DNA from: a virus
Length of the DNA stretch: 41,407 nt
Strand: one strand, 5' to 3'
IMG/VR virus record: IMGVR_UViG_3300048074_000118
Made by a program: the position numbers and the translations under genes. Below, piece after piece: positions 6,824 to 41,407 of this stretch (position 1 is its first letter; each line of letters opens with the position of its first letter). Under the pieces are notes generated by a model. It saw nothing but the letters and a program-made list of their open reading frames with translations, made no database searches and was not told the origin of the DNA.

Positions 6824-8794
6824 CTACGCGGCGATCTTGCAGCGGGTCCCCTTGGTGAAGCTCTGGGGGTGCCGCAGAATGACGTCGCCCATCTGGAAGC
6901 TGGCGATCCGAACCATGGCCCGGGCCATCAGCGTGAAGGGATCCACGGTGATCTCGGTGGCGTTCCAGAACCCGATGACCACGGTGTTCCAGTTGCCGTA
7001 GAGCAGTCCGTGCTCGTCGGCGCCGGTGCCAAGCACCTTCGAGACCTGGTTCGTCGCGGTGGCGCGGTAGCCGGCCACCTCGCCTTCCTCGAAGGTCCCC
7101 ATCCAGATCTTGGTGGAGCCGGCCGCCGAGAACTCCAGGGTCTTCTTGAAGACACCCGCCATCAGCGGGGTCGTCATGTAGCCCAGGGAACCCACATCGG
7201 CATCCTTGTCGGCGACCATGGCCTGCATGTCGACGAGATCGCCGTAGTCCGGAACGCCGTTGACATCCAGCACCTGCACGTCGGGGGCGACGTAGATGCC
7301 GGTCGGCTCGCCGTTGGTCCCGGTGCCGTGGACGGTGGCCCGGTCCATGCCGCGCGCGCCTGCGCCGCCGAGCTCCTGGCGGATCATCTCCTCGACGTCG
7401 ATAGAACTCTCGGCGAGCAGCTGCTTGCCGAAGATGCCCATCCCCATGATGGTGTGCGGGGAGAGCGTCACGAGTCCGGTCCCGATGTCCGAGTCGGGAA
7501 CGTCCTGTGTGGGGTTCTCGCCCACCCAGTACATCGTCATCCCCGAGACCTGCTTGGCGAACGGGATGGGGGCGGTGAGTCCGGTGAGGATCCGAGCCCC
7601 CATGCGCGCGACCATGGCGCGCGTGCGAAGCATCTCGATCAGCTCCCCGGGACGGTCCTGGACGAGCTCCGCGCCGGCGCCGGCGGTCTTGGTGTCGAGG
7701 GCCCGCTCCCGCTGCGGCAGCTGCGTCCGCATGGGGACGAGAATCCCTCCCCGAGACTGGTAGTTGACCGGGGCGTTCTTCAGGATCTCCTGGTGCACCT
7801 CGCCCTCGAGACCATCGAAGGCCTTCCCGCCGTGCTTGTGTTCCATCGAGAGCCTGAGCGCGCGGGCGTAGGAGTAGCGCCCCATGTCGGGGCCGCGGAC
7901 GGAGACTTCTTCGGCGCCGGGTTGCCCGTCTCCGACCGTCTTGCGGGCCTTGACGATCTCGTAGCCCACCTGCTGAGGCGTGAACCCCTGACGGATGAAC
8001 TCCGGCGCGCGGGCGCTGAGGCCGTTGCTCTCGCAGATGGAGAGGATCTCGGCCACCTCCTCGTTGCGGTTGCGCTCGGGGGCGGGCGCGGTGGGGCTCG
8101 TCACGGTTACCGACGCGGCGGGCTGGGCCGGGGGTGGCGTGGTTTCGACAGCGGTGCGGGCACCGGCGGGCTGGGGACTGGGCACCTCGGGCGGCATGGT
8201 TGACTCCTCCTGTGGGACGGCGGGGCCGTCCGTTTCGATCTCAACTTCGTACTCGCTCTGGTCTTCCCCTCGCATTTGGGGGCCGACGCTGATATCCGCC
8301 CCAAGCGGCAGAATCGTCACCTCGATGGGCATCCACTTCGTGGCGGTCCAGACATCCGGGGTGCCCGCCTCCCCCTTCGTGACCTTCGCCTTGAGCACCC
8401 GATAGCCAAGGGAGACCTGCTTGCGGATCTTGTCCTCGACGTCCCGCTTGGTGTCGGCGCCCTTCTGGCTCGCCGAATAGCGCACGTCGCCGACGAGCTT
8501 TCGGTTCTCGATGCGGGCGTTCTCGAAGATCCCGATGTGGACCCCGACATGCTTCTGCCCGTACTCGCCGATCAGGACGTCCTGGACCATGACCGGCAGG
8601 CCGCCCCGCATGAACTTCTTGTCGATCGAGTTCTCGTCGTGCTGGAGGATCTCCGTGCCAAACCAGAACTCGACCGGGGTCTCGCTCGAAACGCTGAACT
8701 TGTGCGGTGCAGGTGCCCCTTCACCCTCGGCCCTTTGGGCTTCGACGATCTCGACGTCTCGGTGGAGGATGGGTAGCTTTCGGATATCGGGCAT
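6824..8794 (-). CDS. Fused prohead protease (HK97 S78-like) / linker / HK97-fold major capsid protein (656 aa)
   Basis: N-terminal protease-like blocks ('QVSLGYRV', 'IEVTILPLGADISVG'), a Pro/Ala/Thr-rich linker, and C-terminal Phage_capsid-like blocks ('GGILVPMRT...', 'LIEMLRTRAMVARMGARILTGLTAPIPFAKQVSGMTMYWVGENP'). AAGGAGAA RBS. Confidence 0.85.
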   Translation of the reverse strand: MPDIRKLPILHRDVEIVEAQRAEGEGAPAPHKFSVSSETPVEFWFGTEILQHDENSIDKKFMRGGLPVMVQDVLIGEYGQKHVGVHIGIFENARIENRKLVGDVRYSASQKGADTKRDVEDKIRKQVSLGYRVLKAKVTKGEAGTPDVWTATKWMPIEVTILPLGADISVGPQMRGEDQSEYEVEIETDGPAVPQEESTMPPEVPSPQPAGARTAVETTPPPAQPAASVTVTSPTAPAPERNRNEEVAEILSICESNGLSARAPEFIRQGFTPQQVGYEIVKARKTVGDGQPGAEEVSVRGPDMGRYSYARALRLSMEHKHGGKAFDGLEGEVHQEILKNAPVNYQSRGGILVPMRTQLPQRERALDTKTAGAGAELVQDRPGELIEMLRTRAMVARMGARILTGLTAPIPFAKQVSGMTMYWVGENPTQDVPDSDIGTGLVTLSPHTIMGMGIFGKQLLAESSIDVEEMIRQELGGAGARGMDRATVHGTGTNGEPTGIYVAPDVQVLDVNGVPDYGDLVDMQAMVADKDADVGSLGYMTTPLMAGVFKKTLEFSAAGSTKIWMGTFEEGEVAGYRATATNQVSKVLGTGADEHGLLYGNWNTVVIGFWNATEITVDPFTLMARAMVRIASFQMGDVILRHPQSFTKGTRCKIAA

Positions 8795-8903
8795 CGCGAG
8801 AGTTCTCCTTGCGACGCGATTCTTGCGGCTGACCCCGATGCTCGCTCAAGTCCAATCTAATTAGACTTGGAATGCCGGCGCGTTGGGTGCGAGCGTGACG
8901 CGC
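8795..8903. promoter_or_regulatory. Divergent intergenic control region between the capsid operon (-) and the gpW/portal operon (+), with an AT-rich palindrome
   Basis: Perfect 10-bp palindrome TCTAATTAGA (8856-8865) flanked by CCAA/TTGG (8852-8870). It is the most AT-rich spot in an otherwise GC-rich structural region. Confidence 0.45.
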
Positions 8904-9449
8904 ATGGGCAACCTCGAGCTCACCGCTCTTCCCGAGTCCTTCCCCGCCGGCACGACGGTGATCTACACCAAGTCGTTCACGGGTTTCTCGTCCGCTGAAT
9001 GGACGCTGAAGCTTTATCTGGCGGGCGCGTCGGTGATCAATGTGACGGCCGCGGCCGAAGGCACGGGCTTCAAGGTCACGCTGGCCGCCGGCGATACGGA
9101 CGACTTCCCGGCCGGCACCTATCAGTGGACAGAGCGCCTGGAGAAGACCGGCGCCGTCTGCGACATCGCCTCCGGGACGGTGATCCTCACTCCGAACCTG
9201 GCCACCGCGACCGCGGGGAGCCTCCAATCGTGGGCCGAGCGCGTCCTCCCGCTCGTGGAGGCAGCGATCGCCGGCCGCATTCCGAGCGGGATGGAGAGCT
9301 ACCAGATCGCCGGGCGCGCGGTGAGCAAGATCCCCATTCCGGAACTCAAGGCTTTCCGCTCCTCGCTCCTCGTGGAGATCTCCCGCCTCAAGCACCCCAA
9401 GCGGATCAGCCGGCCCATCTACATCAAGTTCCCTCCGACAGGGGCATGA
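8904..9449 (+). CDS. gpW-like head-tail joining protein with N-terminal extension (181 aa from ATG 8904; alternative TTG start at 8883)
   Basis: Immediately precedes the portal with an ATGA overlap. The C-terminal 'SYQIAGRAVSKIPIPELKAFRSSLLVEISRLK' resembles lambda gpW-family sequences. Confidence 0.55.
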   Translation: MGNLELTALPESFPAGTTVIYTKSFTGFSSAEWTLKLYLAGASVINVTAAAEGTGFKVTLAAGDTDDFPAGTYQWTERLEKTGAVCDIASGTVILTPNLATATAGSLQSWAERVLPLVEAAIAGRIPSGMESYQIAGRAVSKIPIPELKAFRSSLLVEISRLKHPKRISRPIYIKFPPTGA

Positions 9450-10960
9450 CCATGAAGCGACCGATCGGACAGCGGCTGGTGCGCGCCTGGCGCGAGATCC
9501 AGGGCAAGCGCTCCTCGGACTACAAGGGCGCCGATATGACCCGGCTCCTTCTCGACTGGGTCGCCAAAGCGCTCACCCCCGACGAGGAGATCAAGGGCTC
9601 CATCCGTAAGCTCCGGGCTCGAGCGCGCGAGCTCTCCCGCAACGAGGGCTACGGCAAGCAGTACCTGCGCCTCCTCACCACGAACGTGATCGGGCCCCAG
9701 GGGTTCGACATGCGCGCCCAGGTGATGAAGAGCGAGAACCTCGACACGGTGACGAACAGCGCCATCGAGCTCGCCTGGTGGCATTGGTCCACCGGCAAGG
9801 TCACCGTCGACGGTCGCCTGACCTTGCGGCGGCTGCAGAAGGTGCTGCTCCGCGCGGTCGCCCGGGACGGGGAAGTCTTCGTCCGCCGGTGGCGCTCCTT
9901 CGAGGGGAACCCCTTCGGCTACGCCCTGCAGGCGATCGACGCCGATATGCTCGACGAGACCTACAACCGTGCCCGCGGTTACGGCCGCAACGAGATCCGC
10001 ATGGGCGTCGAGGTCGACAACCTGGGTCGCCCCGTTGGCTATCACTTCTTCAAGGTGCCAGAGAACCGCGTCATGGACGTCGGCGATGCGGGGCGCACCT
10101 TCGTCCCGGCCGATCAGATCCTGCATCTCTACGATCCGGACCGGCCGAACCAGACCCGCGGCGTGACCTGGTTCCATCCCATCATGGTCCCCATGAAGAT
10201 GCTGGGGGGGTACGAGGAAGCCGAGCTCGTCGCCGCTCGCACCGCGGCCGCAAAGATGGGCTTCATCCTGTCCGCGGATGGGAGCAGCGATCCCGACTCG
10301 GACCAACCCGCGGAAATGGAGGCATCCCCTGGAGTGTTGGAGCGCCTCGACGCCGGCGAGACCTTCGCCCCATGGGATCCCCAGCATCCCTCGACGGCCT
10401 TCTCCATCTTCGTGAAGTCCATCCTGCGCAAGATCTCCTCTGGCCTGGGCGTCTCCTACAACGCACTCGCCAACGACCTCGAGGGCGTCAGCTACTCCAG
10501 CATGCGCTCCGGCCTCCTCATCGAACGCGATCACTGGAAAGACCTCCAGGAGGACTGGGTAGAGGACTTCCTGAAGCCCGTCTTCGAGGACTGGTTGAAC
10601 ATGGCGCTTCTTACCGGCGCCCTGGTCCTCGACTCCATGGACGCCAGGCGCTACGCCGCCGATGTCGTCTGGAAGCCTCGCCGCTGGCAGTGGGTGGATC
10701 CCCAGAAGGACGTGGCCGCGACCGAGAACGCGATCGCCCTGGGGCTCACCTCCCGGACCAAGGCCTGCGCCGAGTCGGGTGATGACTTCGACGAGAACCT
10801 GCTCAACCTCGAGCGAGAGATGGAGGCGGCCCGCAAGAAGGGCGTGCCGATCCAGGGTAAGCCCACCGCCGCGCCTCCCCAGCCGTCCCCCGCTGATCTG
10901 GAGGACGATGCCGAATCCGAAGACGACGGCCAGCGGACCCTGCTGGCCGGGAGGTTCTAA
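9446..10960 (+). CDS. Portal protein, lambda (gpB) family (504 aa)
   Basis: Motifs 'RELSRNEGYGKQYLRLLTTNVIGPQGF', 'GVEVDNLGRPVGYHF' and 'QTRGVTWFHPIMVPMKMLGGYEEAELVAARTAAAKMGFI'. Confidence 0.9.
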   Translation: MTMKRPIGQRLVRAWREIQGKRSSDYKGADMTRLLLDWVAKALTPDEEIKGSIRKLRARARELSRNEGYGKQYLRLLTTNVIGPQGFDMRAQVMKSENLDTVTNSAIELAWWHWSTGKVTVDGRLTLRRLQKVLLRAVARDGEVFVRRWRSFEGNPFGYALQAIDADMLDETYNRARGYGRNEIRMGVEVDNLGRPVGYHFFKVPENRVMDVGDAGRTFVPADQILHLYDPDRPNQTRGVTWFHPIMVPMKMLGGYEEAELVAARTAAAKMGFILSADGSSDPDSDQPAEMEASPGVLERLDAGETFAPWDPQHPSTAFSIFVKSILRKISSGLGVSYNALANDLEGVSYSSMRSGLLIERDHWKDLQEDWVEDFLKPVFEDWLNMALLTGALVLDSMDARRYAADVVWKPRRWQWVDPQKDVAATENAIALGLTSRTKACAESGDDFDENLLNLEREMEAARKKGVPIQGKPTAAPPQPSPADLEDDAESEDDGQRTLLAGRF

Positions 10961-10962
10961 TC

Positions 10963-11409
10963 ATGATGAAGCTCACCAGGACGCTCCTGGTCCTCGCTCT
11001 TTCTCTGGCTGCCATCTTCGCGATGGGCAACGTCGATCCGGACTCCACCCGGTGGGACAACGCCGGCGAAGGCACCTATGGCCTCACCGTGGACCTCGCG
11101 GCAGATGCTGACACGGTGGTCTGGTTCGGCTTCCAGGCATGGACGAGCGATGTCTACCGCATGAACGTCGACATCATCGTGACGCCGCTGCTGAACACCG
11201 GCCGACGGATCGTCGACGGCCCGCCCTGGTCGAAGCTGCCCACGGCCAACCCTCGAGCGGGGAGCTCACTCTATGTCTGGGGGCCCGACACGTTGACCGT
11301 TACCAACCCGTCGACGAGCTACTGCTGCGACGGCATTAAGGGATGGCGGATCACCGCGATCGACACGACGGGATATGTGAAGGTGTACGCGACGGGTGGG
11401 CGCCCGTAA
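10963..11409 (+). CDS. Secreted protein with Sec signal peptide (148 aa), function unknown
   Basis: N-terminus 'MMKLTRTLLVLALSLAAIFAMG'. Tightly packed between the portal and the next gene. Confidence 0.7.
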   Translation: MMKLTRTLLVLALSLAAIFAMGNVDPDSTRWDNAGEGTYGLTVDLAADADTVVWFGFQAWTSDVYRMNVDIIVTPLLNTGRRIVDGPPWSKLPTANPRAGSSLYVWGPDTLTVTNPSTSYCCDGIKGWRITAIDTTGYVKVYATGGRP

Positions 11410-13604
11410 TGCGCCCGCTGGCCATCGGTCTCATCCTCGCCTTGCTGTCGGTCTTCATGGCCCTTCCAGCCATCGCCGCCGACTGGTACAGCCCGGACTG
11501 GGGCTACCGCGTCAAGGTGACGGTCGATCAATCCAAGATCCCCGGGACGGCGGACCTCACCGACTTCCCCGTGTTTGTTGACCTACGCAACGTCTGGGGA
11601 TACAGCGCGTGGGGGCTGGAGTTGCAGTCGGATGGCAGTGACATCGTGGTCACGGATTCGGCGGGGACCACGAAGCTCTCCCGGGAGTTGGTGTCGTTCA
11701 ACAAGACCACTCCCAGCGGAAGGCTGTACTTCAAGGCCCCTACGCTCAAGGGGGCGACCAACACCGAGTTCTGGATCTACTGGGGCAGCGAGTCCGCGAG
11801 CGAGGTCAATTCTGCGGCGGTGTGGTCCAGTTCGTTCGGGCTGGTCGCCCACTGCGCCGGGGATACCTCGTCGGTGGGTAGCTACACGGCGACGCAGACT
11901 TCCGTCGGCAAGACGGATACCACGTCCATCGGATCGCCCGCTTGGTCCTATGTCAGAACGACGCCGAGCAAGTCGGTGTGGAACAACTCGGCCATCTCGG
12001 GGAACACATGGACCTTGACGGCTTGGATCAAGTCGTCGGACGGAACCACGAACGCGATCCCGCTCGGACTTGGCGGGACGTACAACGGGCTGATCTCCGC
12101 CGCACCATCAGGGTCTCTCACCTACAGCAACTATGACGGAACGGGGAGGCGCGTACTCGACCCGCCGGTGAGAGACGGAAGCTGGCATCGCGTCGCCGTT
12201 GTGGCCAGGGATGCAACAGCCGATTCGACCTACGGCGTTGTTGACGGCACGCGCTGTGCAGCGGGCGGCACCTACGGTTCTCCCCTGGCCCCGTATTCCA
12301 TTGCTGCCAACATCCGGTTCGGCATCAACATCACCGACCAGTCTGGGCAGGCTTGGACGGGATCGCTCGCGGAAGTTCATATTGCCAATGTGGAGCGATC
12401 GCAGGCGTGGCTCGTTGCCGACGCCAACAACTATAAGTCTCCGTCCACGTTCTACGCGGTGAGCGCGGTCGAGACGAACGTAGCCCCAACCATCGTGCTT
12501 CCCGACACGATCTATGCCGTGGTCGGGCGTGCTACAGGGATCGAGTACACCCAGATCACCCCGCAGATTCCCGGCGCTTCGCACTACGTCTACACCTGCA
12601 CCGCAGACAGCGGCTCGGTTGGTGCAGGCGGATGGAGTTTCACTCCGGCCGGAGTGGGAGACCTGCCCATCGTGTTCAGCGTGCGGGATTCGATCTTCGT
12701 GCTTGGCGACACCACCGTTACGGACACGGTCACGGTATCGGTTGTTGCCAAGGATCGCGGGACTGGCAGTTACAACGTCCTGTTCGTGGGAGATTCCCTC
12801 TTCGACCAAGGAGCCGTTGGCGTCGACACTTGCTACTCGGCGGCATACGCGTCGTCCTACTTCACGGCAGATGGCGGGGCGAGCATCGCCCTCATCGGCA
12901 CACAAGGGACCGCGCCCACGCTGCATGAAGGGCACGGCGGGTGGGACTGGACCGACTACACAACCGCGAACGGTGGCGAGAACCCATTCTGGGATGTCGA
13001 CCACCTGGACTTCCATGCCTACTTTGGGTACTACGGGCTGTCGGCTCCCGACTTCGTTGTCATCAGCCTCGGCGGAAACGATCTCTATAACCTCGCGTAC
13101 ACCAACGTCGCCCTAACCGATTCTGTCTGGGCGCTCTGGGCGGCGAAGATCGACGCCTTCTGCGACACCCTCCTGTCCGCAGACTACGGCTACCCCGACT
13201 GCAAGATCGTCCTGCCGATGGTGAGCTTGAGCAACAGTCGGTATGCGGCATGGATCGCCAACTATCCGACGCTGCCTGACCGGCGCGACAACTACGAGGC
13301 GGCGGCGGCGAGCTACCGAGCGCGTCTCTTCGCACGGTACGGCGACGGCGCGTTCAATGCCAACGTCTCAGTATGCGACATCGGGGCGAGCACGGATCGG
13401 ACCGCCGACTACCCTGCGAATAACTACCTTCACCCGACAGCGCCCCTGGGTCATGTCCCGATGGCCACGGCGTACTACTCGCACCTGCGGGCGCTGATCG
13501 CCGCCGAGGCGTCCTCGGCAACCAGTTCCGTCCTGGGCATCTCCGCAACGAAGCGAGGCCTCGGTCTCCGCCCGCGCCAGGGACGGCTCGGTATCCGACA
13601 CTGA
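11409..13604 (+). CDS. Secreted DUF2341 - LamG/concanavalin-like - SGNH/GDSL esterase multidomain protein (731 aa)
   Basis: Signal peptide 'MRPLAIGLILALLSVFMALPAIA'. DUF2341-type start 'DWGYRVKVTVDQSKIPGTADLTDFPVFVDL'. LamG-like 'SLAEVHIANVERSQAWL'. SGNH blocks 'VLFVGDSLF', 'ISLGGNDL' and 'NNYLHPT'. Confidence 0.8.
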   Translation: MRPLAIGLILALLSVFMALPAIAADWYSPDWGYRVKVTVDQSKIPGTADLTDFPVFVDLRNVWGYSAWGLELQSDGSDIVVTDSAGTTKLSRELVSFNKTTPSGRLYFKAPTLKGATNTEFWIYWGSESASEVNSAAVWSSSFGLVAHCAGDTSSVGSYTATQTSVGKTDTTSIGSPAWSYVRTTPSKSVWNNSAISGNTWTLTAWIKSSDGTTNAIPLGLGGTYNGLISAAPSGSLTYSNYDGTGRRVLDPPVRDGSWHRVAVVARDATADSTYGVVDGTRCAAGGTYGSPLAPYSIAANIRFGINITDQSGQAWTGSLAEVHIANVERSQAWLVADANNYKSPSTFYAVSAVETNVAPTIVLPDTIYAVVGRATGIEYTQITPQIPGASHYVYTCTADSGSVGAGGWSFTPAGVGDLPIVFSVRDSIFVLGDTTVTDTVTVSVVAKDRGTGSYNVLFVGDSLFDQGAVGVDTCYSAAYASSYFTADGGASIALIGTQGTAPTLHEGHGGWDWTDYTTANGGENPFWDVDHLDFHAYFGYYGLSAPDFVVISLGGNDLYNLAYTNVALTDSVWALWAAKIDAFCDTLLSADYGYPDCKIVLPMVSLSNSRYAAWIANYPTLPDRRDNYEAAAASYRARLFARYGDGAFNANVSVCDIGASTDRTADYPANNYLHPTAPLGHVPMATAYYSHLRALIAAEASSATSSVLGISATKRGLGLRPRQGRLGIRH

Positions 13605-13617
13605 CGGAAGGAGCACG

Positions 13618-13995
13618 ATGAAGCGAGCGGCCAATCTGATGCGGGCGACAGTCCTTGTGTGGCTCCTGGCGATGGGTGCCTTCCTCCTTCTCGCTGCCCC
13701 CTATTCCTCGGGGCAGGAGCTCAACGGGAAAGCGATCGAAGGGATCCGCGCCGGCGAGCTGATCGCGCTCATCAACATGCTCTTCACACTGGCCGGCATC
13801 ATCGGCGTTGCTGCGGTGAGCCACTACCGCCTGGGGCAGGCGGAGAAGATCCTCCAGGAGCTGCGTCAGGATCTGGCGAAGCACACTGCCTCCGACGTCG
13901 AGCTCGCGCGCTTCAAGGGCACCATCGATCAGGGCATCAAGGACATGCAGCGCCGACTCCAGTACCTCGAAGACCGGGAGAACGGGATCCAGTGA
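13618..13995 (+). CDS. Holin-like membrane protein (2 hydrophobic segments plus a coiled-coil tail, 125 aa)
   Basis: GGAAGGAG RBS. Sits directly upstream of the endolysin and is GTGA-coupled to it. Confidence 0.6.
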   Translation: MKRAANLMRATVLVWLLAMGAFLLLAAPYSSGQELNGKAIEGIRAGELIALINMLFTLAGIIGVAAVSHYRLGQAEKILQELRQDLAKHTASDVELARFKGTIDQGIKDMQRRLQYLEDRENGIQ

Positions 13996-14510
13996 GCCCC
14001 GCCTACCTCGCCCGCGTCCAAGAGCGAATCGAAGGACTCATCGTCGAAGCTCAGAAGCCGGCGCTCGTTCTCCTCGCCGGCGCCGCTGACCAGGGTGTCG
14101 CCCTGCGGATCACCCGCACCGTCGACACCTGGGCGACCCAGGCAGCCTACTTCGCACAGGGACGGCAGGCGCTCGACCAGGTCAACGCGCTGCGCGCCGG
14201 CGTGGGCCTCGCCCCCATCACCGAGAGGCAGAATCGGTTCACCGTGACGAAGGCGCGCCCCGGCCGCAGCTGGCACAACTGGCGACGCGCTCTCGACGTC
14301 GTCCCCGTAGATGAGGCGACGTCCCCCGATCTTCGGGATCCCGACAACCCCCTCTGGAACGCGCCCTACTGGCCGGCGCTTGGCGAGCTCGGCGAGGCGC
14401 TGGGCTACGAGTGGGGCGGCCGCTGGGGGGACAACCCTCACTTCCAGTGGACTCACGGCGCCACTCTCGATGGGCTGCTCGCGCAGTTCCCCCAGGGGCT
14501 TCACCTATGA
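13992..14510 (+). CDS. Endolysin, peptidase M15 (VanY / L-alanyl-D-glutamate peptidase type, 172 aa)
   Basis: Zinc-ligand pattern 'SWHNWRRALDVVP ... WGGRWGDNPHFQW'. No signal peptide. Confidence 0.8.
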   Translation: MSPAYLARVQERIEGLIVEAQKPALVLLAGAADQGVALRITRTVDTWATQAAYFAQGRQALDQVNALRAGVGLAPITERQNRFTVTKARPGRSWHNWRRALDVVPVDEATSPDLRDPDNPLWNAPYWPALGELGEALGYEWGGRWGDNPHFQWTHGATLDGLLAQFPQGLHL

Positions 14511-15418
14511 GAACGCTCGTCGCCAGTGGAGGCGCCTTCAAGGGCGCCGTCCAGGTCGGGATGATCGACGGCCTCTGCGCAGCCGAATGGCTCCGCCAGC
14601 GGAATCCCCCGACGCGCATCCCCGGCTCCTGGGTCCTCCCGTGGCAGCTCTACCTCGGAGTCTCGACGGGGAGCCTGCAGGCTTCGATCGCCGCGTGCGG
14701 CCGCTACTCCGACGTCGAGAAGCTCAGGGCTCGCTGGGCAAGCCTTCAAGGGATCGGCGACATCATGAAGATGCGCGCCGGCGGTTGGCTTCGCCTCGTC
14801 CCCCTCGTCAAAGGCGGCTCGCTCTACTCCTTCGCCCCGCTCCGAAAGATCCTCGAGAAGGATCTCGCTGACGACGATCTGCTGCGGATCCGCCGCGCTG
14901 GCAACCGGTTCCTCTGCGGGTACACCGACATGGAGACCCTCACCTACAAGCTGGCGGACGATCGCAACACGAACATCCGGACCTGGATCGAAGCGAGCTG
15001 CTCGGTGCCCGGCTATCACGAGGGGGTCTTGGGCCGCTACTTCGACGGCGGGGTCCGTAACGTCACCCCCCTCGCGGACGCGATCCGCGCCGGCGCCACG
15101 AAGATCGATGTGCTCCTGGCTTCCCCCTTGAAGCCGGTCGTCAAGAACGTGCCGAGGACGGTGATCGGCCGGGTAGGGAGAGCGATCGACGGGCTCACAA
15201 ACGAGATCATGCGCGGCGATCTGCGCGAGGCGGCGCTGCGCAACCGCTATCCCCGCCCCGGCGATCGCCAGCTCGAGATCCGCGTCTTCATGCCGGAGAC
15301 GCCGGTCAACGACTCCTGGTCGCTCAAGCCCGGCGACTACGCGCGGATGTACCGCATCGGGTTCGGATTGGCCGCCCGACCACTCACCGTGGCTGAGGCG
15401 CTTGGAGAGGAGATCTGA
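14507..15418 (+). CDS. Patatin-like phospholipase (303 aa)
   Basis: Oxyanion 'SGGAFKG', nucleophile elbow 'GVSTGS' (GxSxG) and catalytic 'FDGGV' (DGG). ATGA-coupled to the endolysin. Confidence 0.8.
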   Translation: MRTLVASGGAFKGAVQVGMIDGLCAAEWLRQRNPPTRIPGSWVLPWQLYLGVSTGSLQASIAACGRYSDVEKLRARWASLQGIGDIMKMRAGGWLRLVPLVKGGSLYSFAPLRKILEKDLADDDLLRIRRAGNRFLCGYTDMETLTYKLADDRNTNIRTWIEASCSVPGYHEGVLGRYFDGGVRNVTPLADAIRAGATKIDVLLASPLKPVVKNVPRTVIGRVGRAIDGLTNEIMRGDLREAALRNRYPRPGDRQLEIRVFMPETPVNDSWSLKPGDYARMYRIGFGLAARPLTVAEALGEEI

Positions 15419-15419
15419 C

Positions 15420-15647
15420 GTGTTCAAGAAGATCGGCAAGAAACTCTGGACCGTGATCGGGAGCGCCGTACTCCTTCCCGCGCTCTACGTGACGCTCACG
15501 AAGAAGGTCGGACTCGACGAGGCCGCGGCCCAACAGGTGATCGAGGTCGTCGGAGGCCTCGTCGGTCTCGGCATCGTGAGCCACGCCGCTACCGACATTG
15601 CCGTCACGCGGAAGGTCATCGACAGCAAGCGATCTGCCGGCGAGTGA
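15420..15647 (+). CDS. Small 2-TM membrane protein (75 aa, GTG start); second holin/antiholin candidate
   Basis: Two hydrophobic helices. Starts 1 nt after the patatin stop. Confidence 0.55.
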   Translation: MFKKIGKKLWTVIGSAVLLPALYVTLTKKVGLDEAAAQQVIEVVGGLVGLGIVSHAATDIAVTRKVIDSKRSAGE

Positions 15648-15883
15648 TCGCCGGAAACCCACGCGAGTCCCGTGGCCGTGCCACACCGGATTCCCGCCCT
15701 CGGTACGCTCAGTCTCTTCCAGTGTTGAGTTCAGCCAAAGCAATGAGTTCATCGTTCTCTCTGGCCTGGCAAGGGTCTCATTGGTAGTATCTCGGCCCCG
15801 ACAGAGTGGATTCTGGCTTGTATGCCACATGCGACACTCTGCCGAGGCCGCGGTGCATTACTGCGGGGACAAGGGGAGACGCG

Positions 15884-16438
15884 ATGATCGATAGAAGCAC
15901 CCGAAATGCGATCATAGACATCGGATACATGTCGGTGGGTTCCGGTCTTTTTCTCTTGAGCACGGAACCCGTCGGCCGTTTCGTTGTCCACTCACTGCTT
16001 CCAGCCTTGGGACTTACATCAGACTCGGGAGTTCTAGGATCGGTTGCTATCGTGATATTCTTTCTTCTGTATGCGGCCCCGTTTGCCCTGGTCGCCCGAT
16101 ATCTCCTTCGGCGATTCCCGGTGGATGTTCCCGAGAGGTGGCTACCACTGGAGGATCTGGCCCGTGCTCGCAAATCTCTCGCGAGTTCCGTAGAATTCCT
16201 CGACACCCTGGCAGCTGATATCGCCAAGAACGAGCGCAGAAGGCTGGAACTTGAGGCGTTGGTCGAATCTCTCAAGGCTGCGTCCTCGGAGAGCGCGAAT
16301 GATCTCCGCGAGAAACTAGCAGCCATAGACTACGTTCGTCGGCGGGGGAGCTACCTGCGCACCGCCTTCACGTTCCTGCTCGGAGTCCTGGCTTCTCTAG
16401 CGGCGCAGACCATTTGGAGCGTTGCGACGAAACGATGA
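15884..16438 (+). CDS. Membrane protein (about 3 TM plus a coiled coil, 184 aa); moron-like accessory gene
   Basis: GGGGAG RBS before ATG 15884. Locally more AT-rich. Isolated by non-coding DNA on both sides. Confidence 0.6.
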   Translation: MIDRSTRNAIIDIGYMSVGSGLFLLSTEPVGRFVVHSLLPALGLTSDSGVLGSVAIVIFFLLYAAPFALVARYLLRRFPVDVPERWLPLEDLARARKSLASSVEFLDTLAADIAKNERRRLELEALVESLKAASSESANDLREKLAAIDYVRRRGSYLRTAFTFLLGVLASLAAQTIWSVATKR

Positions 16439-16496
16439 TCTTGCCACCCCTCCCATCAGCACGCGGCCCTGAGAGCTTGCCTAGCATGGTCGCCGT

Positions 16497-24801: not shown

Positions 24802-25023
24802 ATGTACTGTCCGAACTGCGGTTCCGTGGCAGAAGCCAAGCGCCACACCAAAGGTTCGTTCCTAGTCGAGTTGCTCCTCTGGCTCTGCTTCCTCGTCCCA
24901 GGGCTCATCTACTCAATCTGGAGGTTGACGACGCGCTCAACGGTCTGCGGAGTCTGCAAGAGTTCCGGCGTGATTCCTGAGAACTCGCCCAGGGCGAAGG
25001 AAGCCCTTGCCAAACCCCGATGA
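24802..25023 (+). CDS. Membrane zinc-ribbon protein, CxxC - hydrophobic - CxxC (LITAF-like layout, 73 aa; alternative ATG at 24760)
   Basis: 'MYCPNCGS...FLVELLLWLCFLVPGLIYSIW...CGVCKS'. GAGAGGTGG RBS. Confidence 0.65.
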   Translation: MYCPNCGSVAEAKRHTKGSFLVELLLWLCFLVPGLIYSIWRLTTRSTVCGVCKSSGVIPENSPRAKEALAKPR

Positions 25024-25625
25024 AGACCGACGACGTCCTCAACCCCGCCTTCACGGATGACCATTTCGTCGTCTGGCTCATACCAGGCTCGATCGCTCTC
25101 TTGCCGTGGGTGTTCGTCCTCCACCACTACGTCTCACTTTCACGTGCTTGGAGGGACCACGAGTGGATTCTGGGAATAGGATTCCTACTCGCCGCCTCTG
25201 GACTCGGAGCCCTTGTCGAGAGCTTTGGCGGGTGGATAGAGAGCGAGAACTATGACAAGAGACTCGAGACTGCGAGGGAAGGCCACACGGACGAGTGGTA
25301 CGAGTACCTGGTCACTGCCATCCCAGCCGACTTGGTTGTCCATCGCTATGTGCGTCACCGGGTCCGCCTGATGAAGTTCGAGATCAGCGTGGGCATTGCT
25401 AGTCCCGCCGCGCTCGTCGCATGCTGGTGGCTCCGAGGCTTGGACTTGGCCTTCAGCTGGCCCGGACTCGTCGTCCTGACGATCCTGGTGGGCGCGCTCT
25501 GCAGGTACCTATTCTGGGACGCCTTCAAGATCGCGGAGATCCTCTCGGACATCAGAATGCGGCTCCTGACGATCCATCGTCAGGCCGGCGCTGTGCCCCA
25601 GGTGCCCCCCGCGCGAAACCCTTAG
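25020..25625 (+). CDS. 4-TM integral membrane protein (201 aa)
   Basis: ATGA-coupled to the previous gene. Four hydrophobic helices, with a charged loop between TM2 and TM3. Confidence 0.65.
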   Translation: MKTDDVLNPAFTDDHFVVWLIPGSIALLPWVFVLHHYVSLSRAWRDHEWILGIGFLLAASGLGALVESFGGWIESENYDKRLETAREGHTDEWYEYLVTAIPADLVVHRYVRHRVRLMKFEISVGIASPAALVACWWLRGLDLAFSWPGLVVLTILVGALCRYLFWDAFKIAEILSDIRMRLLTIHRQAGAVPQVPPARNP

Positions 25626-25641: not shown

Positions 25642-26454
25642 ATGTCATCCATCCCCGCCAAGGTCGAGACTCGGATCAAGACTGAGGTGAAGCGCTACCG
25701 CGGCATCATCGAGTCAGCGAAACTCAGGGACGTCAATGAAGCCGACACCTCGATCATCGTGACCGGGGTTCTCGCGGATGTCCTCGGGTGGGATCGGTTC
25801 ACGGACGTCACCCGGGAGTACTGCGTCCGCAACACCTTCTGCGATCTCGCCGTCAAGGTGGACGGGAGGGTGAAGATCTTCGTCGAGGTCAAGGCGATCG
25901 GGCTGAGCCTCAAGGACACCCACCTACGGCAGGTGGTGGACTACGCCACGAAGGAGGGCGTGGACTGGGTCATCCTCACGAACGGTGCGATCTGGAAGGT
26001 CTTCAAGGTCCTCTACGAGAAGCCCATCAACCAGCAGGAGGTCTTCGAGGTCGACCTCGTCGACACCGCCCTTCGGCCGGCGGCCCTGGTCGACAAGCTC
26101 TACCTGATCACGAAGGAGGGCGTCTCGAAGTCCGCGATCGCCTCCTACCATGAGCAGAAGCAGGCCACCAGCCGGTTCATGATCGCAGCCACCCTGTTGT
26201 CCGAACCCGTCGTCGAGGCGCTCCGCCGGGAGATCCGCCGCGTGAGCGGCGGCGTCCGCCTCGAGGCCGACGAGCTGCAGGAGATCCTAAAGGCCGAGGT
26301 CCTCAAGCGTGAGGTCCTCGAAGGCGACCAGGCGAAGGAGGCCAGCGATCGGGTGAGGAGGGCCTCGGGGAAAGCACTCAAACGCGCGGCTCCGATTGAC
26401 CGGAGCGATGATGACAATGTTCAGGATCCGCCTCCGGAGAGCGGGAGTGCTTAG
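25642..26454 (+). CDS. PD-(D/E)xK nuclease, HsdR-N-terminal-like domain + C-terminal helical region (270 aa)
   Basis: Core 'FCDLAVKVDGRVKIFVEVKAIG' (D...E-x-K) followed by 'DYATKEGVDWVILTNGAIWKVF'. AAGGAG RBS. Confidence 0.7.
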   Translation: MSSIPAKVETRIKTEVKRYRGIIESAKLRDVNEADTSIIVTGVLADVLGWDRFTDVTREYCVRNTFCDLAVKVDGRVKIFVEVKAIGLSLKDTHLRQVVDYATKEGVDWVILTNGAIWKVFKVLYEKPINQQEVFEVDLVDTALRPAALVDKLYLITKEGVSKSAIASYHEQKQATSRFMIAATLLSEPVVEALRREIRRVSGGVRLEADELQEILKAEVLKREVLEGDQAKEASDRVRRASGKALKRAAPIDRSDDDNVQDPPPESGSA

Positions 26455-26959
26455 ATCCCTGACATTATGGTGGTCCGCCCTCGGGCACACGCGCAGGAGG
26501 CAACTGGCTCGAATCGCGAACGCCCCGCTCACAATCCTCCTCATCTCGGCGGTCTTGATTGTGGTCGGTCCGGAGTGCTACAGCGATCGTCAAGACCAGA
26601 ACCTCAGGAGGCGTGAACGTGATGCCGCGGTTCGGACCTTGGATCTAGAGATAGCGGAGCGCGTCAGACACCTGAACCTTGAATTTGCTGACAATCTGAG
26701 CATGTTCTATAACGGCCGTCTAAGTGAAGTGCCTGATGAGAGGAGCTTTCACGCGCTCTTCCCAGAGTACCAAGCTCGCTCCCTGCGCTCCCTTCTTCTT
26801 CAGCTCGAGGACCTGGTCGAAGGAAGAAGAACTGTTGAGATCAGGGCGGTGATAGACGCCACAGAGCGAATAGAGCTGCAGCCAAATGAAGCGGCGGACA
26901 CCTCCGCCGTGCGCACCTACTTGGAGCTACTCCGAGCCAAGTGGGGCTCGCAGGACTGA
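26408..26959 (+). CDS. Single-TM protein with helical soluble domain (about 183 aa; start uncertain: 26396/26408/26417)
   Basis: TM 'LTILLISAVLIVVG'. Overlaps the nuclease gene's 3' end and stops 11 nt before the integrase. Confidence 0.5.
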   Translation: MMTMFRIRLRRAGVLRSLTLWWSALGHTRRRQLARIANAPLTILLISAVLIVVGPECYSDRQDQNLRRRERDAAVRTLDLEIAERVRHLNLEFADNLSMFYNGRLSEVPDERSFHALFPEYQARSLRSLLLQLEDLVEGRRTVEIRAVIDATERIELQPNEAADTSAVRTYLELLRAKWGSQD

Positions 26960-31101: not shown

Positions 31102-33051
31102 TCAGGATTCCCAGCCCCGGACCCAGCCCCGCCGCCGAGCCCGCCCCATCCGGCGAGCCTGATGAGGCTCTCCCGCCACCTCTCCGGTCGGTTGGCCTTC
31201 CGGTGTGAGTCGAGCCGCCCTCTCCGGGAGGGACCGGATCACTGGCTGCCCCAGGATGTGGAGTGCCGCCAGACAGTACACCTCGAGGTCGAGCGCCTCA
31301 TTGCGCTCCCGCAACTTGATCCACTCCCGCACCCGGCCCCGGTTCCTCAGCCACTTCCAGATCGCCTTCTCGGCGGTGAGCTGCTCGAGATACTCGACGT
31401 CCACCCAGTCCGGGAGGTGACAGTAGCCGGGCCCCTTCGTGCGGATCCGCAGGCGCGACAAGATGATGTCCTTGGCGGTGTCGACGCAGAGGGTGAAGAG
31501 CTTCGCGTGGTAGCGATTGTGGGTGGTCGGCCGCTTGGGCACGACCGGCTTCCCCTTCTCGTTCCCGCCGCGCACCGCGAAGACGCGGCGGTGGAGCCGG
31601 GCGCGGCAGAACTTGTAGACCTCCTCGGTGTGGTGGCCACCGGAGTCGACCGTGACGCAGGAGACCTTCACCTTCCTGCCGCTCTCATGCACGAACTCCT
31701 GGGTGAGGAACTTGTCGAGCTCGAGCCAGGTGGACTCGTGAACCGGATCCCCGTGCACCTGGTGGAAAGCGATCAGCCAGGACTCCTCCCCGGCGCCGTA
31801 CCCCTTCACCTGGGCTTCGAGGCGATCGCCCTGGACGTCGACTGCAGCGACGAGGATCCCGACGCCGGCGGGAACCTCGGCGACGTAGCTTTCGAGCCGG
31901 CCGACTAGACTGTCGGCATCGAGGGAGTCGCCGCGCTCCTCCCAGGTCTCGCCGAGGACGGTATTCACCCAGGCCTGCAGACGGAACGGATCCTCCTTCG
32001 CCTCGAGGAACTCGGACACACACTCCGACCAGGACTTCCACCCGAGCGGTGAGTAGAGGGCGGAGAGGTGGAACCCGACTGTCCGGCCCGTGCTCTTCGC
32101 GGTGGGGCGCCATTCTCCGCCGGCCAGCATGAGAGCCTTGTACCGCTCATCGATGAGGCGCTCGCACGCGACGCAGGCCAGCTTCGCCGTCTCCGGGCGC
32201 GCCTCTTCCCATCGGATGTTCTCCCAGCGGATCCAGTCGAAGTGGCCACAGTGGGGGCAGGCCACGAAGTAGCGCCGTTGGTCCGAGGCCAGGAATTCCT
32301 TCTCGATGCGCGAGACTCCTTTAACCGTAGGCGTGGAGGTCATCATGATCTTGCGCCGCGGAAAGGTGGCGGTGCGTTTCTCGGCGAGGGAGACCGGATC
32401 CCCTTCCTCGTCGACGTTGCCGGGGTAGCGGTCGACCTCGTCGAGGAAGAGATAGCGCGCCGGCATGCGGGACAAGCCCTTGGCGGAATTAGCCCCCGTG
32501 ATGGCCAGGATCCCGCCAGGAAACTCCTTCATCAGGGTCGTGTTTCCCGAGTCCCGTGACCGCGCCTCCTTCACCAGTGCGCGCAGCGCCGGCGTCTCGG
32601 CGATCATCGGAGAGAGGCGTTGCTTGCTCTCCGCGCGGGCGAGCTCGACGGTGGGCTCCACAAAGAGGATCGGCCCGGGCACATGATGGATGATGTAGCC
32701 CATCGTGTTGTTGAGCGACTCGGTCTTCCCAACTTGGCTCCCGGCCATGAAGACTACGCGCCGAGCACGGTTGTGAGCCGACATGCAGTCCATCGGCTCC
32801 CGGAGGTAGGGCGTCCTCGAGGTGCGCCAGGGCCCCGGCTCGCTCGAGGTCATCGAACTCAGGACGCGGTGCTCATCCGCCCACTGGCTGACCGTGAGGA
32901 CCGGGTCCGGCGCGAAGCCGCGGGCGGCGGCGTCGAAGACGATCCATCGCCCGCGACGGCGCTGCTCTTCTCGCTCCGGATCGTCTTCGATAAGGCTGAG
33001 CTCAGCTGGTTCAGGACTTCGCGTATCGCGTCCTCGAGGATGTCGTGGCAC
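31102..33051 (-). CDS. terL: Terminase large subunit, lambda GpA family (649 aa, GTG start)
   Basis: 'LTVSQWADEHRVL', Walker A 'FMAGSQVGKTE', 'YLFLDEVDRYP' and zinc-ribbon 'YFVACPHCGHFDWIRWENIRW'. Confidence 0.92.
   Translation of the reverse strand: MPRHPRGRDTRSPEPAELSLIEDDPEREEQRRRGRWIVFDAAARGFAPDPVLTVSQWADEHRVLSSMTSSEPGPWRTSRTPYLREPMDCMSAHNRARRVVFMAGSQVGKTESLNNTMGYIIHHVPGPILFVEPTVELARAESKQRLSPMIAETPALRALVKEARSRDSGNTTLMKEFPGGILAITGANSAKGLSRMPARYLFLDEVDRYPGNVDEEGDPVSLAEKRTATFPRRKIMMTSTPTVKGVSRIEKEFLASDQRRYFVACPHCGHFDWIRWENIRWEEARPETAKLACVACERLIDERYKALMLAGGEWRPTAKSTGRTVGFHLSALYSPLGWKSWSECVSEFLEAKEDPFRLQAWVNTVLGETWEERGDSLDADSLVGRLESYVAEVPAGVGILVAAVDVQGDRLEAQVKGYGAGEESWLIAFHQVHGDPVHESTWLELDKFLTQEFVHESGRKVKVSCVTVDSGGHHTEEVYKFCRARLHRRVFAVRGGNEKGKPVVPKRPTTHNRYHAKLFTLCVDTAKDIILSRLRIRTKGPGYCHLPDWVDVEYLEQLTAEKAIWKWLRNRGRVREWIKLRERNEALDLEVYCLAALHILGQPVIRSLPERAARLTPEGQPTGEVAGEPHQARRMGRARRRGWVRGWES
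31211..31293. repeat. Imperfect direct repeat, copy A (inside the live terL)
   Basis: See the partner entry. Confidence 0.9.
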
Positions 33052-40900: not shown

Positions 40901-41407
40901 TCAGTCCAGCGCGACGGCCAGGAAGTCGTCGCGGTCGGTTCGGGTGATGTTGTGCAGGACCATCCAGTCGACGGCCCCGAGCCTCAACAAGGTCTCGGCG
41001 GTGAGCCCTTGGCCAGTCACAGCGGCAACGCCTCGCAGCTGACCAATCGTGTTCGGTGCGGCCGCGTTCAGCATCACTGGCCACAGCGCGTAGGAGCCGT
41101 CCAGATTGACATCGAGGAGACTCAGGCCGCAGCGATACGGCCAGACGACGTTCTTGTAACTCGCCGGCGTGCCGGACACGCCGTCGTTGCTGCTGGCCTC
41201 GAAAGGCAGCCAGACGCCGTCAAGCCCCCTGGCGGCAAGCTGTGAATCCTCCGGCTCAAGGGGCGAAGTCTCGCTCAGGGTATCCGCGTGCGTCGGCATC
41301 CGATGATTGTCTGTCGTGTTGGACCAGCGATAGGACGTGCTCTCCAGGGTCGGCGGAGCTTCGGTCAGAGCCAGGGAAGCACCCAGGGCCAACGGATAGG
41401 GCCACTG
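40901..41407 (-). CDS. C-terminal part of the wrap-around 531-aa tail protein (stop TGA at 40903..40901)
   Basis: The ORF track shows only a TTG-initiated 163-aa piece. The frame stays open to the window end and joins 1..1216 through the 127-nt overlap. Confidence 0.8.
   Translation of the reverse strand, partial: QWPYPLALGASLALTEAPPTLESTSYRWSNTTDNHRMPTHADTLSETSPLEPEDSQLAARGLDGVWLPFEASSNDGVSGTPASYKNVVWPYRCGLSLLDVNLDGSYALWPVMLNAAAPNTIGQLRGVAAVTGQGLTAETLLRLGAVDWMVLHNITRTDRDDFLAVALD
41281..41407. repeat. Terminal direct repeat, right copy (identical to 1..127)
   Basis: Same comparison. The repeat lies inside a coding frame, which argues for an assembly overlap of a circular molecule. Confidence 0.97.

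Follow-up and report, generated by a model that had tools for sequence, protein, structure and literature searches.

The viral sequence record IMGVR_UViG_3300048074_000118 of IMG/VR (41,407 nucleotides; this whole stretch of DNA is referred to as the window) encodes at positions 13618-15647 a lysis cassette in which a patatin-like phospholipase follows directly after the endolysin, i.e. in the place where spanins would be expected. We suggest, with a probability that we put at about 0.45, that this patatin is a lipolytic accessory lysis enzyme that fills the role of a spanin or a disruptin and that is functionally LysB-like.

The cassette comprises four plus-strand genes: gene A (13618..13995), the endolysin gene (13992..14510), the patatin gene (14507..15418) and gene D (15420..15647). 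The initial annotation described these genes as a translationally coupled lysis cassette, and the open reading frames (ORFs) and their coordinates are exactly as claimed: the TGA stop codon of gene A (13993-13995) overlaps the GTG start codon of the endolysin gene (13992-13994) in a GTGA (13992-13995), the TGA stop codon of the endolysin gene (14508-14510) overlaps the ATG start codon of the patatin gene (14507-14509) in an ATGA (14507-14510), and a 1-nt gap (15419) separates the patatin stop codon (15416-15418) from the GTG start codon of gene D at 15420. All four start codons are preceded by a purine-rich stretch resembling a Shine-Dalgarno site (AAGGAG in the case of gene A), and the starts of the endolysin gene and gene D match the gene calls on a related contig, L003. 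The GC content at third codon positions (GC3) is 0.84-0.87 in all four genes and equal to that in the rest of the phage; the cassette is thus not a recent insertion. The cassette is genuine and forms the end of a plus-strand late operon, the head of which (8883..11409) encodes a 188-aa protein (p188), the lambda-type portal and a 148-aa protein (p148), followed by a secreted SGNH esterase, gene A, endolysin, patatin and gene D. Because the operon starts with p188 and the portal gene, the cassette would be placed under late-gene expression.

The patatin (303 aa) matches PF01734 over the complete profile (positions 1-191 of 191; E 8.1e-20, 72.3 bits with a cut-off of 27.7). The GGxxKG, GxSxG and DGG motifs noted in the initial annotation are all borne out by a 22-sequence alignment, in which they read S7-G8-G9-A-F-K12-G13, G51-V-S53-T-G55 and D180-G181-G182; G8, G9, G13, G51, S53, G55, D180, G181 and G182 are invariant, and K12 is replaced by Arg in a few sequences. 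The Ser, the Asp and the flanking Gly residues are also invariant in an 8-sequence alignment of the clade to which the patatin belongs and which is marked by an inserted stretch that contains an invariant L-P-W and directly precedes the nucleophile strand and the GxSxG motif. In Foldseek searches, an AlphaFold2 model of the protein (predicted local distance difference test score 83.2, predicted template modeling score 0.85) matched CapV, potato patatin, CapE and PlpD with a probability of 1.0 and template modeling scores of 0.55-0.65. From its motifs and predicted fold the patatin looks enzymatically active. The ratio of nonsynonymous to synonymous substitution rates between the window and L003, 0.17 in the case of the patatin, shows that this protein is under purifying selection and that the constraint on it equals that on the endolysin (0.15) and the portal (0.19), whereas the value of the capsid protein is 0.44.

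The patatin is predicted to be cytoplasmic, with neither a transmembrane segment nor a hydrophobic N-terminus, and its oxyanion motif begins at residue 7. It is strongly basic (net charge +12, pI 9.7), and the patatin of the window and the relatives P0001 and P0002 are the most basic sequences in alignment A1, with net charges of +5 to +12 versus -31 to +3 in the distant relatives. This strongly positive charge would fit binding to anionic membranes. No PHROG family contains the patatin, and a tblastn search of INPHARED returned nothing at E<=1e-3 and marginal matches only at E<=10, e.g. p022 of Rhodothermus phage RM378, the gene for which adjoins a DNA polymerase gene. The possibility that the protein is a defence effector of a cyclic oligonucleotide-based antiphage signaling system (CBASS) was considered and rejected: no defence model in PADLOC was matched by the patatin or by eight other window proteins tested, the NCBIfam CBASS_lipase model was not matched by the patatin, and the neighbours are lysis genes. 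Its similarity to CapV is at the level of the fold only (template modeling score about 0.6, 14-18% identity).

The endolysin (172 aa) is a single-domain M15 (LAS-type) peptidoglycan endopeptidase. Its initial assignment as an M15 peptidase is supported by a match to Peptidase_M15_4 (PF13539; E 3.7e-10, 40.7 bits with a cut-off of 25) and by intact zinc ligands, H95, D102 and H150 (H-x6-D...H), which are invariant in relatives. The protein also matches PHROG endolysin families, and its homologues are named L-alanyl-D-glutamate endopeptidase CwlK by JGI. It has no hydrophobic segment, signal sequence or signal-arrest-release (SAR) sequence and no wall-binding module. A reading as a SAR endolysin was rejected, the mildly hydrophobic stretch PALVLLAGAADQGVAL lying within the match to the M15/VanY profile and being conserved among homologues. 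Given that endolysin and patatin both lack an export signal, both would need a holin-type exit.

Candidates for providing this exit flank the two enzymes. Gene A codes for a 125-aa membrane protein, a holin/antiholin candidate with two predicted transmembrane segments (strongly hydrophobic; residues 10-28 and 49-67) and a charged C-terminal tail of 58 residues that we read as a coiled coil on the basis of its composition and a sub-threshold match to DUF7491. The protein begins with MKRAANLM (13618-13641), and starts at Met1 and Met8 differ by two positive charges; gene A may thus have a dual start, resembling the dual-start holin/antiholin motif of lambda S. Gene D codes for a 75-aa cationic protein (net charge +4) with two weaker, moderately hydrophobic segments (residues 9-27 and 35-53), a lysine-rich N-terminus and a charged C-terminus, and it is a candidate for a class-II-holin-like protein or for a membrane partner of the patatin. 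By hydropathy and charge, both proteins fit the features of class II holins (small, two transmembrane segments, N-in/C-in topology, charged C-terminus); neither matches a holin family, and no Pfam, PHROG, PADLOC or NCBIfam family was matched above threshold by either. The protein encoded by gene A is similar neither to the holin-like protein of phage WO nor to an 89-aa protein in the same slot of a prophage locus, L011, and this slot is occupied by unrelated small proteins of the transmembrane plus coiled-coil type in L003, L081, L011 and L084.

Relatives of the cassette proteins were identified in a word-indexed search of 5.8 billion proteins and an exhaustive profile search of 1.84 billion representatives, the latter with 2,139 matches to the profile. 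The word-indexed search yielded only two close relatives of the patatin, P0001 and P0002, and only three relatives of gene D, all of them from this phage clade. P0001 (82% identical) is encoded on L003, a 37.9-kb viral contig that resembles the window from end to end and that has the order SGNH protein, small membrane protein, M15 endolysin, patatin and gene D homologue. Gene D is kept together with the patatin in L003 (76-80% identity), and the slot of gene A is filled by a different protein of 80 aa, which is charged in its N-terminal part and has a transmembrane segment at the C-terminus. A further relative from the profile search, P0054 (44% identical), is encoded on contig L081, which has a p148 gene and a portal (45-50% identical) in common with the window and in which the order is small membrane protein, endolysin, patatin and small membrane protein; the gene order at the head of the operon is kept in both L003 and L081. 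The endolysin of L081 is a Peptidase_M15_3 protein and not an M15_4 protein, both small membrane proteins and the secreted enzyme encoded upstream are unrelated to their counterparts in the window, and the slot of gene D holds a membrane protein of 83 aa that is unrelated and has two or more transmembrane segments. That the patatin was kept in L081 while all its neighbours were swapped is the strongest argument for a role in lysis. Judged from these sequences, the patatin is the most stable element of the lysis module of this lineage, and it lies between an endolysin and a small membrane protein in three lineages (the window, L003 and L081). In addition, contig L084 encodes a member of the clade, P0055, 2 kb downstream of an M15_4 endolysin and on the same strand.

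The patatin clade is sparse and its closest members are all on phage-like contigs. The P0002 patatin is followed by a small transmembrane protein, and the patatin in L002 is followed by one of 103 aa. Short clade-related patatins of ~280-320 aa recur in uncultivated phages at varied positions in the genome. In L086 (6001-6909) and in L088 and L062 (1853-2806 and 5001-5954, respectively) the patatin gene is immediately upstream of the genes for the small and large terminase subunits, and in L064-L068 and RM378 (L075, 4980-5945) it is beside genes for a Cas4-like nuclease, an exonuclease, DnaC or a DNA polymerase. A metagenome scan returned relatives with 25-35% identity only (40% over one short segment), in no case with an M15 endolysin close by, and relatives with 30-34% identity are solitary genes in genomes rich in TonB receptors, which suggests that these genomes are from diderms.

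A central element of our proposal is that spanins appear to be missing. The "spanin-less" cassette of Shewanella LambdaSo proved to hide nested Rz/Rz1 genes (10.1101/2024.01.23.576932), and for this reason an exhaustive scan for lipobox-containing ORFs was important. Every ATG, GTG and TTG start in all six frames of the window was scanned. The initial annotation had reported neither an Rz/Rz1-type pair nor an embedded lipoprotein ORF, and had called for a systematic search for lipobox-containing ORFs in 13.6-15.7 kb; this search gave no candidate, and neither a two-component nor an embedded or unimolecular spanin candidate was detected in the cassette. There are no lipobox ORFs in any frame in 12.8-17 kb, a looser scan of the plus strand that also allowed CTG, ATT and ATC starts gave nothing credible in 13.3-16.5 kb, and the cassettes of L003 and L081 likewise contain no lipobox ORF. 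In the window as a whole none of the matches was credible, i.e. an antisense match, an internal in-frame match and a match at 26287-26544 on the minus strand that was not looked at further, and all three are far from the cassette. The internal start at 25371, which would give a lipobox-like N-terminus ending in ALVAC with a transmembrane segment only about 12 residues past the Cys, was rejected as it is in frame inside a 201-aa ORF (25020-25625, plus strand) in the lysogeny region. The protein encoded by gene A does not fit the pattern of an inner-membrane spanin, i.e. a single N-terminal transmembrane segment and a periplasmic coiled coil: it has two transmembrane segments, or a signal peptide and one transmembrane segment, and from hydropathy and the positive-inside rule its tail is predicted to be cytoplasmic. 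Directly after the cassette is an insert of low GC content (15650-16490; 57% versus ~65% GC, GC3 0.61 versus 0.84) that is absent from L003. It contains an ORF of 184 aa (15884-16438) with a transmembrane segment, a charged and probably coiled-coil stretch and a C-terminal transmembrane segment, and without a family match. The insert with this ORF is probably a recently acquired moron, and the ORF was set aside as a spanin-like element in view of its position in the insert and its absence from L003.

Combining these data, we suggest a model in which endolysin and patatin would accumulate in the cytoplasm until a holin, for which the products of gene A and/or gene D are candidates, opens large lesions. 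The M15 endopeptidase would then cleave the peptidoglycan cross-bridges, and the strongly basic patatin would gain access to the periplasm and deacylate glycerophospholipids by means of Ser53 and Asp180. Its likeliest target would be the phospholipid inner leaflet of the outer membrane together with remnants of the inner membrane, and the resulting lysolipids and free fatty acids would destabilise this last layer of the envelope. In this model, we infer the late timing, the release through holin lesions, the phospholipid substrate, the outer membrane as the target and the diderm host. Two lines of sequence evidence point to a diderm host: (i) the endolysin is a single-domain protein without a wall-binding module, and (ii) the large terminase subunit (TerL), the capsid protein and the tail-tip proteins are 28-51% identical to proteins of phages of Gram-negative hosts, the exception being one record labelled Clavibacter. 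For these same two reasons an actinobacterial, LysB-type setting is judged unlikely; LysA proteins are generally known as multidomain proteins. A scan of GTDB species representatives with the endolysin alignment gave nothing above 35% identity, and the matches were from many phyla.

Several observations weigh against this model. If constitutively active, a phospholipase in the cytoplasm would start on the inner membrane ahead of holin triggering, and no mechanism for regulating the patatin is visible in its sequence. The actual outer-membrane factor could be gene D or a protein that has escaped recognition. The gene for P0002 (51-54% identical) is surrounded by methylase and helicase genes and has no recognisable endolysin gene next to it, distant members of the clade adjoin terminase, tail or DNA replication and repair genes, and at ~90 distant patatin loci an M15 endolysin is nearby in none. 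Finally, the prophage L011, which sits in a bacterial chromosome and was sampled together with the window phage, encodes a minimal cassette (9706-10528) consisting of the 89-aa protein with an N-terminal transmembrane segment and a charged tail and an M15 endolysin that is 66% identical to that of the window, and in L011 there is neither a patatin nor a lipobox ORF. The L011-type prophage is carried by a 1.29-Mb contig, one of those from JGI samples 3300049437, 3300048561 and 3300049801. The absence of both from L011 suggests that the patatin may be an accessory factor and not an obligatory replacement for spanins, and lysis in this host group may need no dedicated outer-membrane factor at all.

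Immediately upstream of gene A, the late operon encodes a second candidate for attack on the envelope. The 731-aa protein (11409..13604, plus strand) has matches to DUF2341, a ConA-like domain, and to Lipase_GDSL_2 (SGNH/GDSL esterase), and it has a clear Sec-type signal-peptide-like N-terminus, MRPLAIGLILALLSVFMALPAIA/AD, that is kept in L003. Its gene is coupled to the preceding gene by a TGATG junction (11407-11411). The GDS block is intact, but NYLH (in L003, DYFH) stands where a DxxH block is usual. A calcineurin-type phosphoesterase with a signal-peptide-like N-terminus takes the place of the esterase in L081 and L011. Given that a secreted enzyme is not normally part of the virion, the SGNH protein may be a further accessory enzyme for degradation of the envelope. 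In the arrangement of an esterase and a carbohydrate-binding-type domain directly upstream of holin and endolysin, it parallels the GDSL lipase of a Pseudomonas syringae siphophage (PMC12173070); the two systems differ in that no sequence similarity is detectable, the P. syringae phage system has no patatin and the natural role of the lipase is unproven there.

Three other functions of the patatin have to be weighed against the one that we favor. The patatin could attack the cytoplasmic membrane from inside as a helper of the holin, as a trigger or as a back-up permeabiliser, causing collapse of the proton-motive force and escape of the endolysin, and the outer membrane would then fail passively or by the action of another factor. 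Synthesis in the cytoplasm without an export signal is in line with this function, as are the best structural matches, the CBASS effectors CapV and CapE, which once activated destroy the inner membrane from the cytoplasm; the CapV likeness is, however, restricted to the fold and accompanied by no match to a CBASS or other defence-effector model. Similarly, the recurrence of a small membrane protein after the patatin (in the window, L003, L081 with its 83-aa protein and L002 with its 103-aa protein) and the proposal that phage WO uses a patatin and a small holin-like protein instead of an endolysin would fit this function, but the cassette already encodes two holin-like proteins, and an unregulated lipase acting on the inner membrane and expressed from a late operon would risk killing the cell prematurely. 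We consider this function unlikely.

Alternatively, the patatin could be a cargo that is freed by holin-endolysin lysis and acts outside of the cell, similarly to the release of toxins by systems resembling the type 10 secretion system; it might then act on vesicles or membrane debris in which progeny would be caught, on neighbouring bacteria, or on a eukaryote that is a host or a predator. Modules of a holin and an M15-type endopeptidase export proteins in Serratia and Yersinia (PMC4259817, PMC10847048), the effector patatins ExoU, VipD and PlpD are among the fold matches, a secreted SGNH esterase is encoded directly upstream, and the P. syringae GDSL lipase, also encoded upstream of holin and endolysin, was proposed to act on surface polymers (PMC12173070). 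Yet the window has structural genes and represents an entire phage, not a domesticated secretion locus, the patatin contains no domain for interaction with eukaryotes, and its tight coupling to the endolysin and holin-like genes, which is kept in three lineages, argues for a role in lysis itself; we regard a function as released cargo as quite improbable. A similarly low probability is assigned to a function outside of lysis that is shared by the clade, e.g. in membrane remodelling, host takeover or counter-defence, with the patatin gene merely parked in the late operon and the outer-membrane step accomplished by a cationic, disruptin-like gene D protein or an unrecognised protein, or not needed. 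This possibility would account for the clade members beside terminase genes (L086, L088/L062), replication and repair genes (L064-L068, RM378) and methylase genes (L002), for L011, which if functional lyses its host with neither patatin nor spanin, and for the lysine-rich N-terminus and net positive charge of the gene D protein. It is at odds with the retention of the patatin as the sole component of the cassette in the lineage of the window while its neighbours were swapped, and with a constraint on the patatin equal to that on the endolysin. The gene D protein moreover has two hydrophobic segments resembling transmembrane segments, and in the work on phage phiKT disruptins were reportedly described as soluble amphipathic peptides.

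The cassette has partial parallels in several known systems. LysB of mycobacteriophages has the alpha/beta-hydrolase fold of cutinases and a Ser-Asp-His triad, and it cleaves the mycolyl-arabinogalactan esters of mycolata; it is not known to have a signal peptide, and the order lysA-lysB-holin-like in Ms6 resembles the order endolysin-patatin-gene D. In Ms6 and D29, efficient lysis requires LysB as a third lysis factor directed at the outer lipid layer (PMC5707550, PMC6116114). The patatin in the window is likewise a lipolytic enzyme encoded in a lysis cassette beside an endolysin and without an export signal. In contrast to LysB, it has a patatin fold and a Ser-Asp dyad, is related to LysB neither in sequence nor in fold, with no alpha/beta-hydrolase family or structure among its Pfam and Foldseek matches, and would act in a host that is probably a diderm of the phospholipid/lipopolysaccharide type. 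The initial annotation had proposed, by analogy with LysB, a lipid hydrolase that breaches the outer membrane: what stands of this proposal is that the patatin is an intact, constrained and stable member of the cassette, whereas specificity for the outer membrane is conjectural and the fold and catalytic apparatus of LysB are different.

An architectural parallel that involves a patatin is the hypothetical "patatin-based lytic cassette" proposed for phage WO (Bordenstein & Bordenstein 2022, PMC9203015). WO has a patatin beside a small holin-like protein with transmembrane and coiled-coil parts, and like the window phage it is temperate with a serine recombinase and a gpA-type terminase; TerL of the window is 46-48% identical to TerL of WO. 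The likeness of the cassettes is architectural only: the endolysin-patatin pair lies between genes A and D, the holin-like proteins have no sequence similarity and the two patatins are related at the family level only (hhalign probability 95.5%, about 20% identity). The WO patatin is proposed to stand in for an endolysin, and ankyrin proteins are part of the WO cassette, whereas the window has an intact M15 endolysin; the lack of an endolysin in WO is explained by the lack of detectable peptidoglycan in its host.

Spanins (Rz/Rz1 and the unimolecular gp11 of T1) share with the patatin the place directly after the endolysin and the presumed task of removing the outer membrane. They differ in being non-enzymatic proteins with a lipoprotein component that are thought to fuse the inner and outer membranes, whereas the patatin is a soluble predicted enzyme. 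To our knowledge, disruptins are the only demonstrated alternative to spanins. Recognisable spanins are lacking in about 15% of the phages analysed, and phiKT uses a disruptin (gp28) instead (10.1101/515445). The patatin would resemble this disruptin in bringing about disruption of the outer membrane by a non-spanin in a spanin-less phage; the disruptin is, however, a small cationic peptide of the antimicrobial type and not an enzyme, and only gene D, with its segments resembling transmembrane segments, might be loosely similar to it. Finally, CapV and CapE are the closest solved structures to the patatin; the patatin itself matches no defence model, and its neighbours are lysis genes. CapV and CapE are membrane-degrading, cell-killing effectors of host defence that depend on cyclic nucleotides for their activation and have a cyclase gene as neighbour.

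The remainder of the window is in agreement with a temperate tailed phage. Positions 1-127 and 41281-41407 are an exact direct overlap of 127 bp, indicating that the window is a complete circular assembly of ~41.3 kb (about 41,280 bp) with ~65% GC. It encodes a lambda-family portal on the plus strand (Phage_portal_2, E 1.5e-90), a protease-capsid fusion, a head-tail attachment protein, a gpA-type TerL, distal tail proteins similar to those of gene transfer agents (GTA) and lambda, a large serine recombinase, a cI/S24-type repressor and ParB; the portal, capsid, terminase, tail, recombinase and repressor genes mark it as a temperate tailed phage with a siphovirus-type (lambda/GTA-like) tail module. 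The layout is unusual: within 6824-10960 the portal gene on the plus strand is divergent from the protease-capsid fusion gene on the minus strand, and the large terminase gene (31102-33051) lies at the distal end of the structural operon on the minus strand, beyond the tail genes. L003 keeps this portal, capsid and terminase layout, and L081 shares the part from the portal to p148. At the DNA level, a megablast search with 12 kb of the window against 50,697 phage records gave no match; no tRNA genes were found in the window, and a scan of it for promoters and terminators gave nothing informative.

We are doubtful about the broader claim that the patatin, perhaps jointly with the small membrane protein encoded after it, represents a new enzymatic class of outer-membrane-disrupting lysis factors in diderm phages. 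From a practical perspective, a small basic phospholipase alongside an endolysin could help externally applied endolysins to cross the outer membrane of Gram-negative bacteria; an engineered chimera of an endolysin and a lipase has already been shown to aid passage of the endolysin across the outer membrane from the outside (PMC12173070). If our proposal is true, a lipolytic enzyme would be a third solution to the outer-membrane problem in addition to spanins and disruptins, and the mycolata would no longer be the only hosts lysed with the help of a LysB-like lipolytic step. It would also define a clade of patatins with an LPW insertion, the closest members of which are phage-borne, and would provide a new mechanism for the last step of lysis and, indirectly, support for the hypothesis of patatin-based lysis by phage WO.

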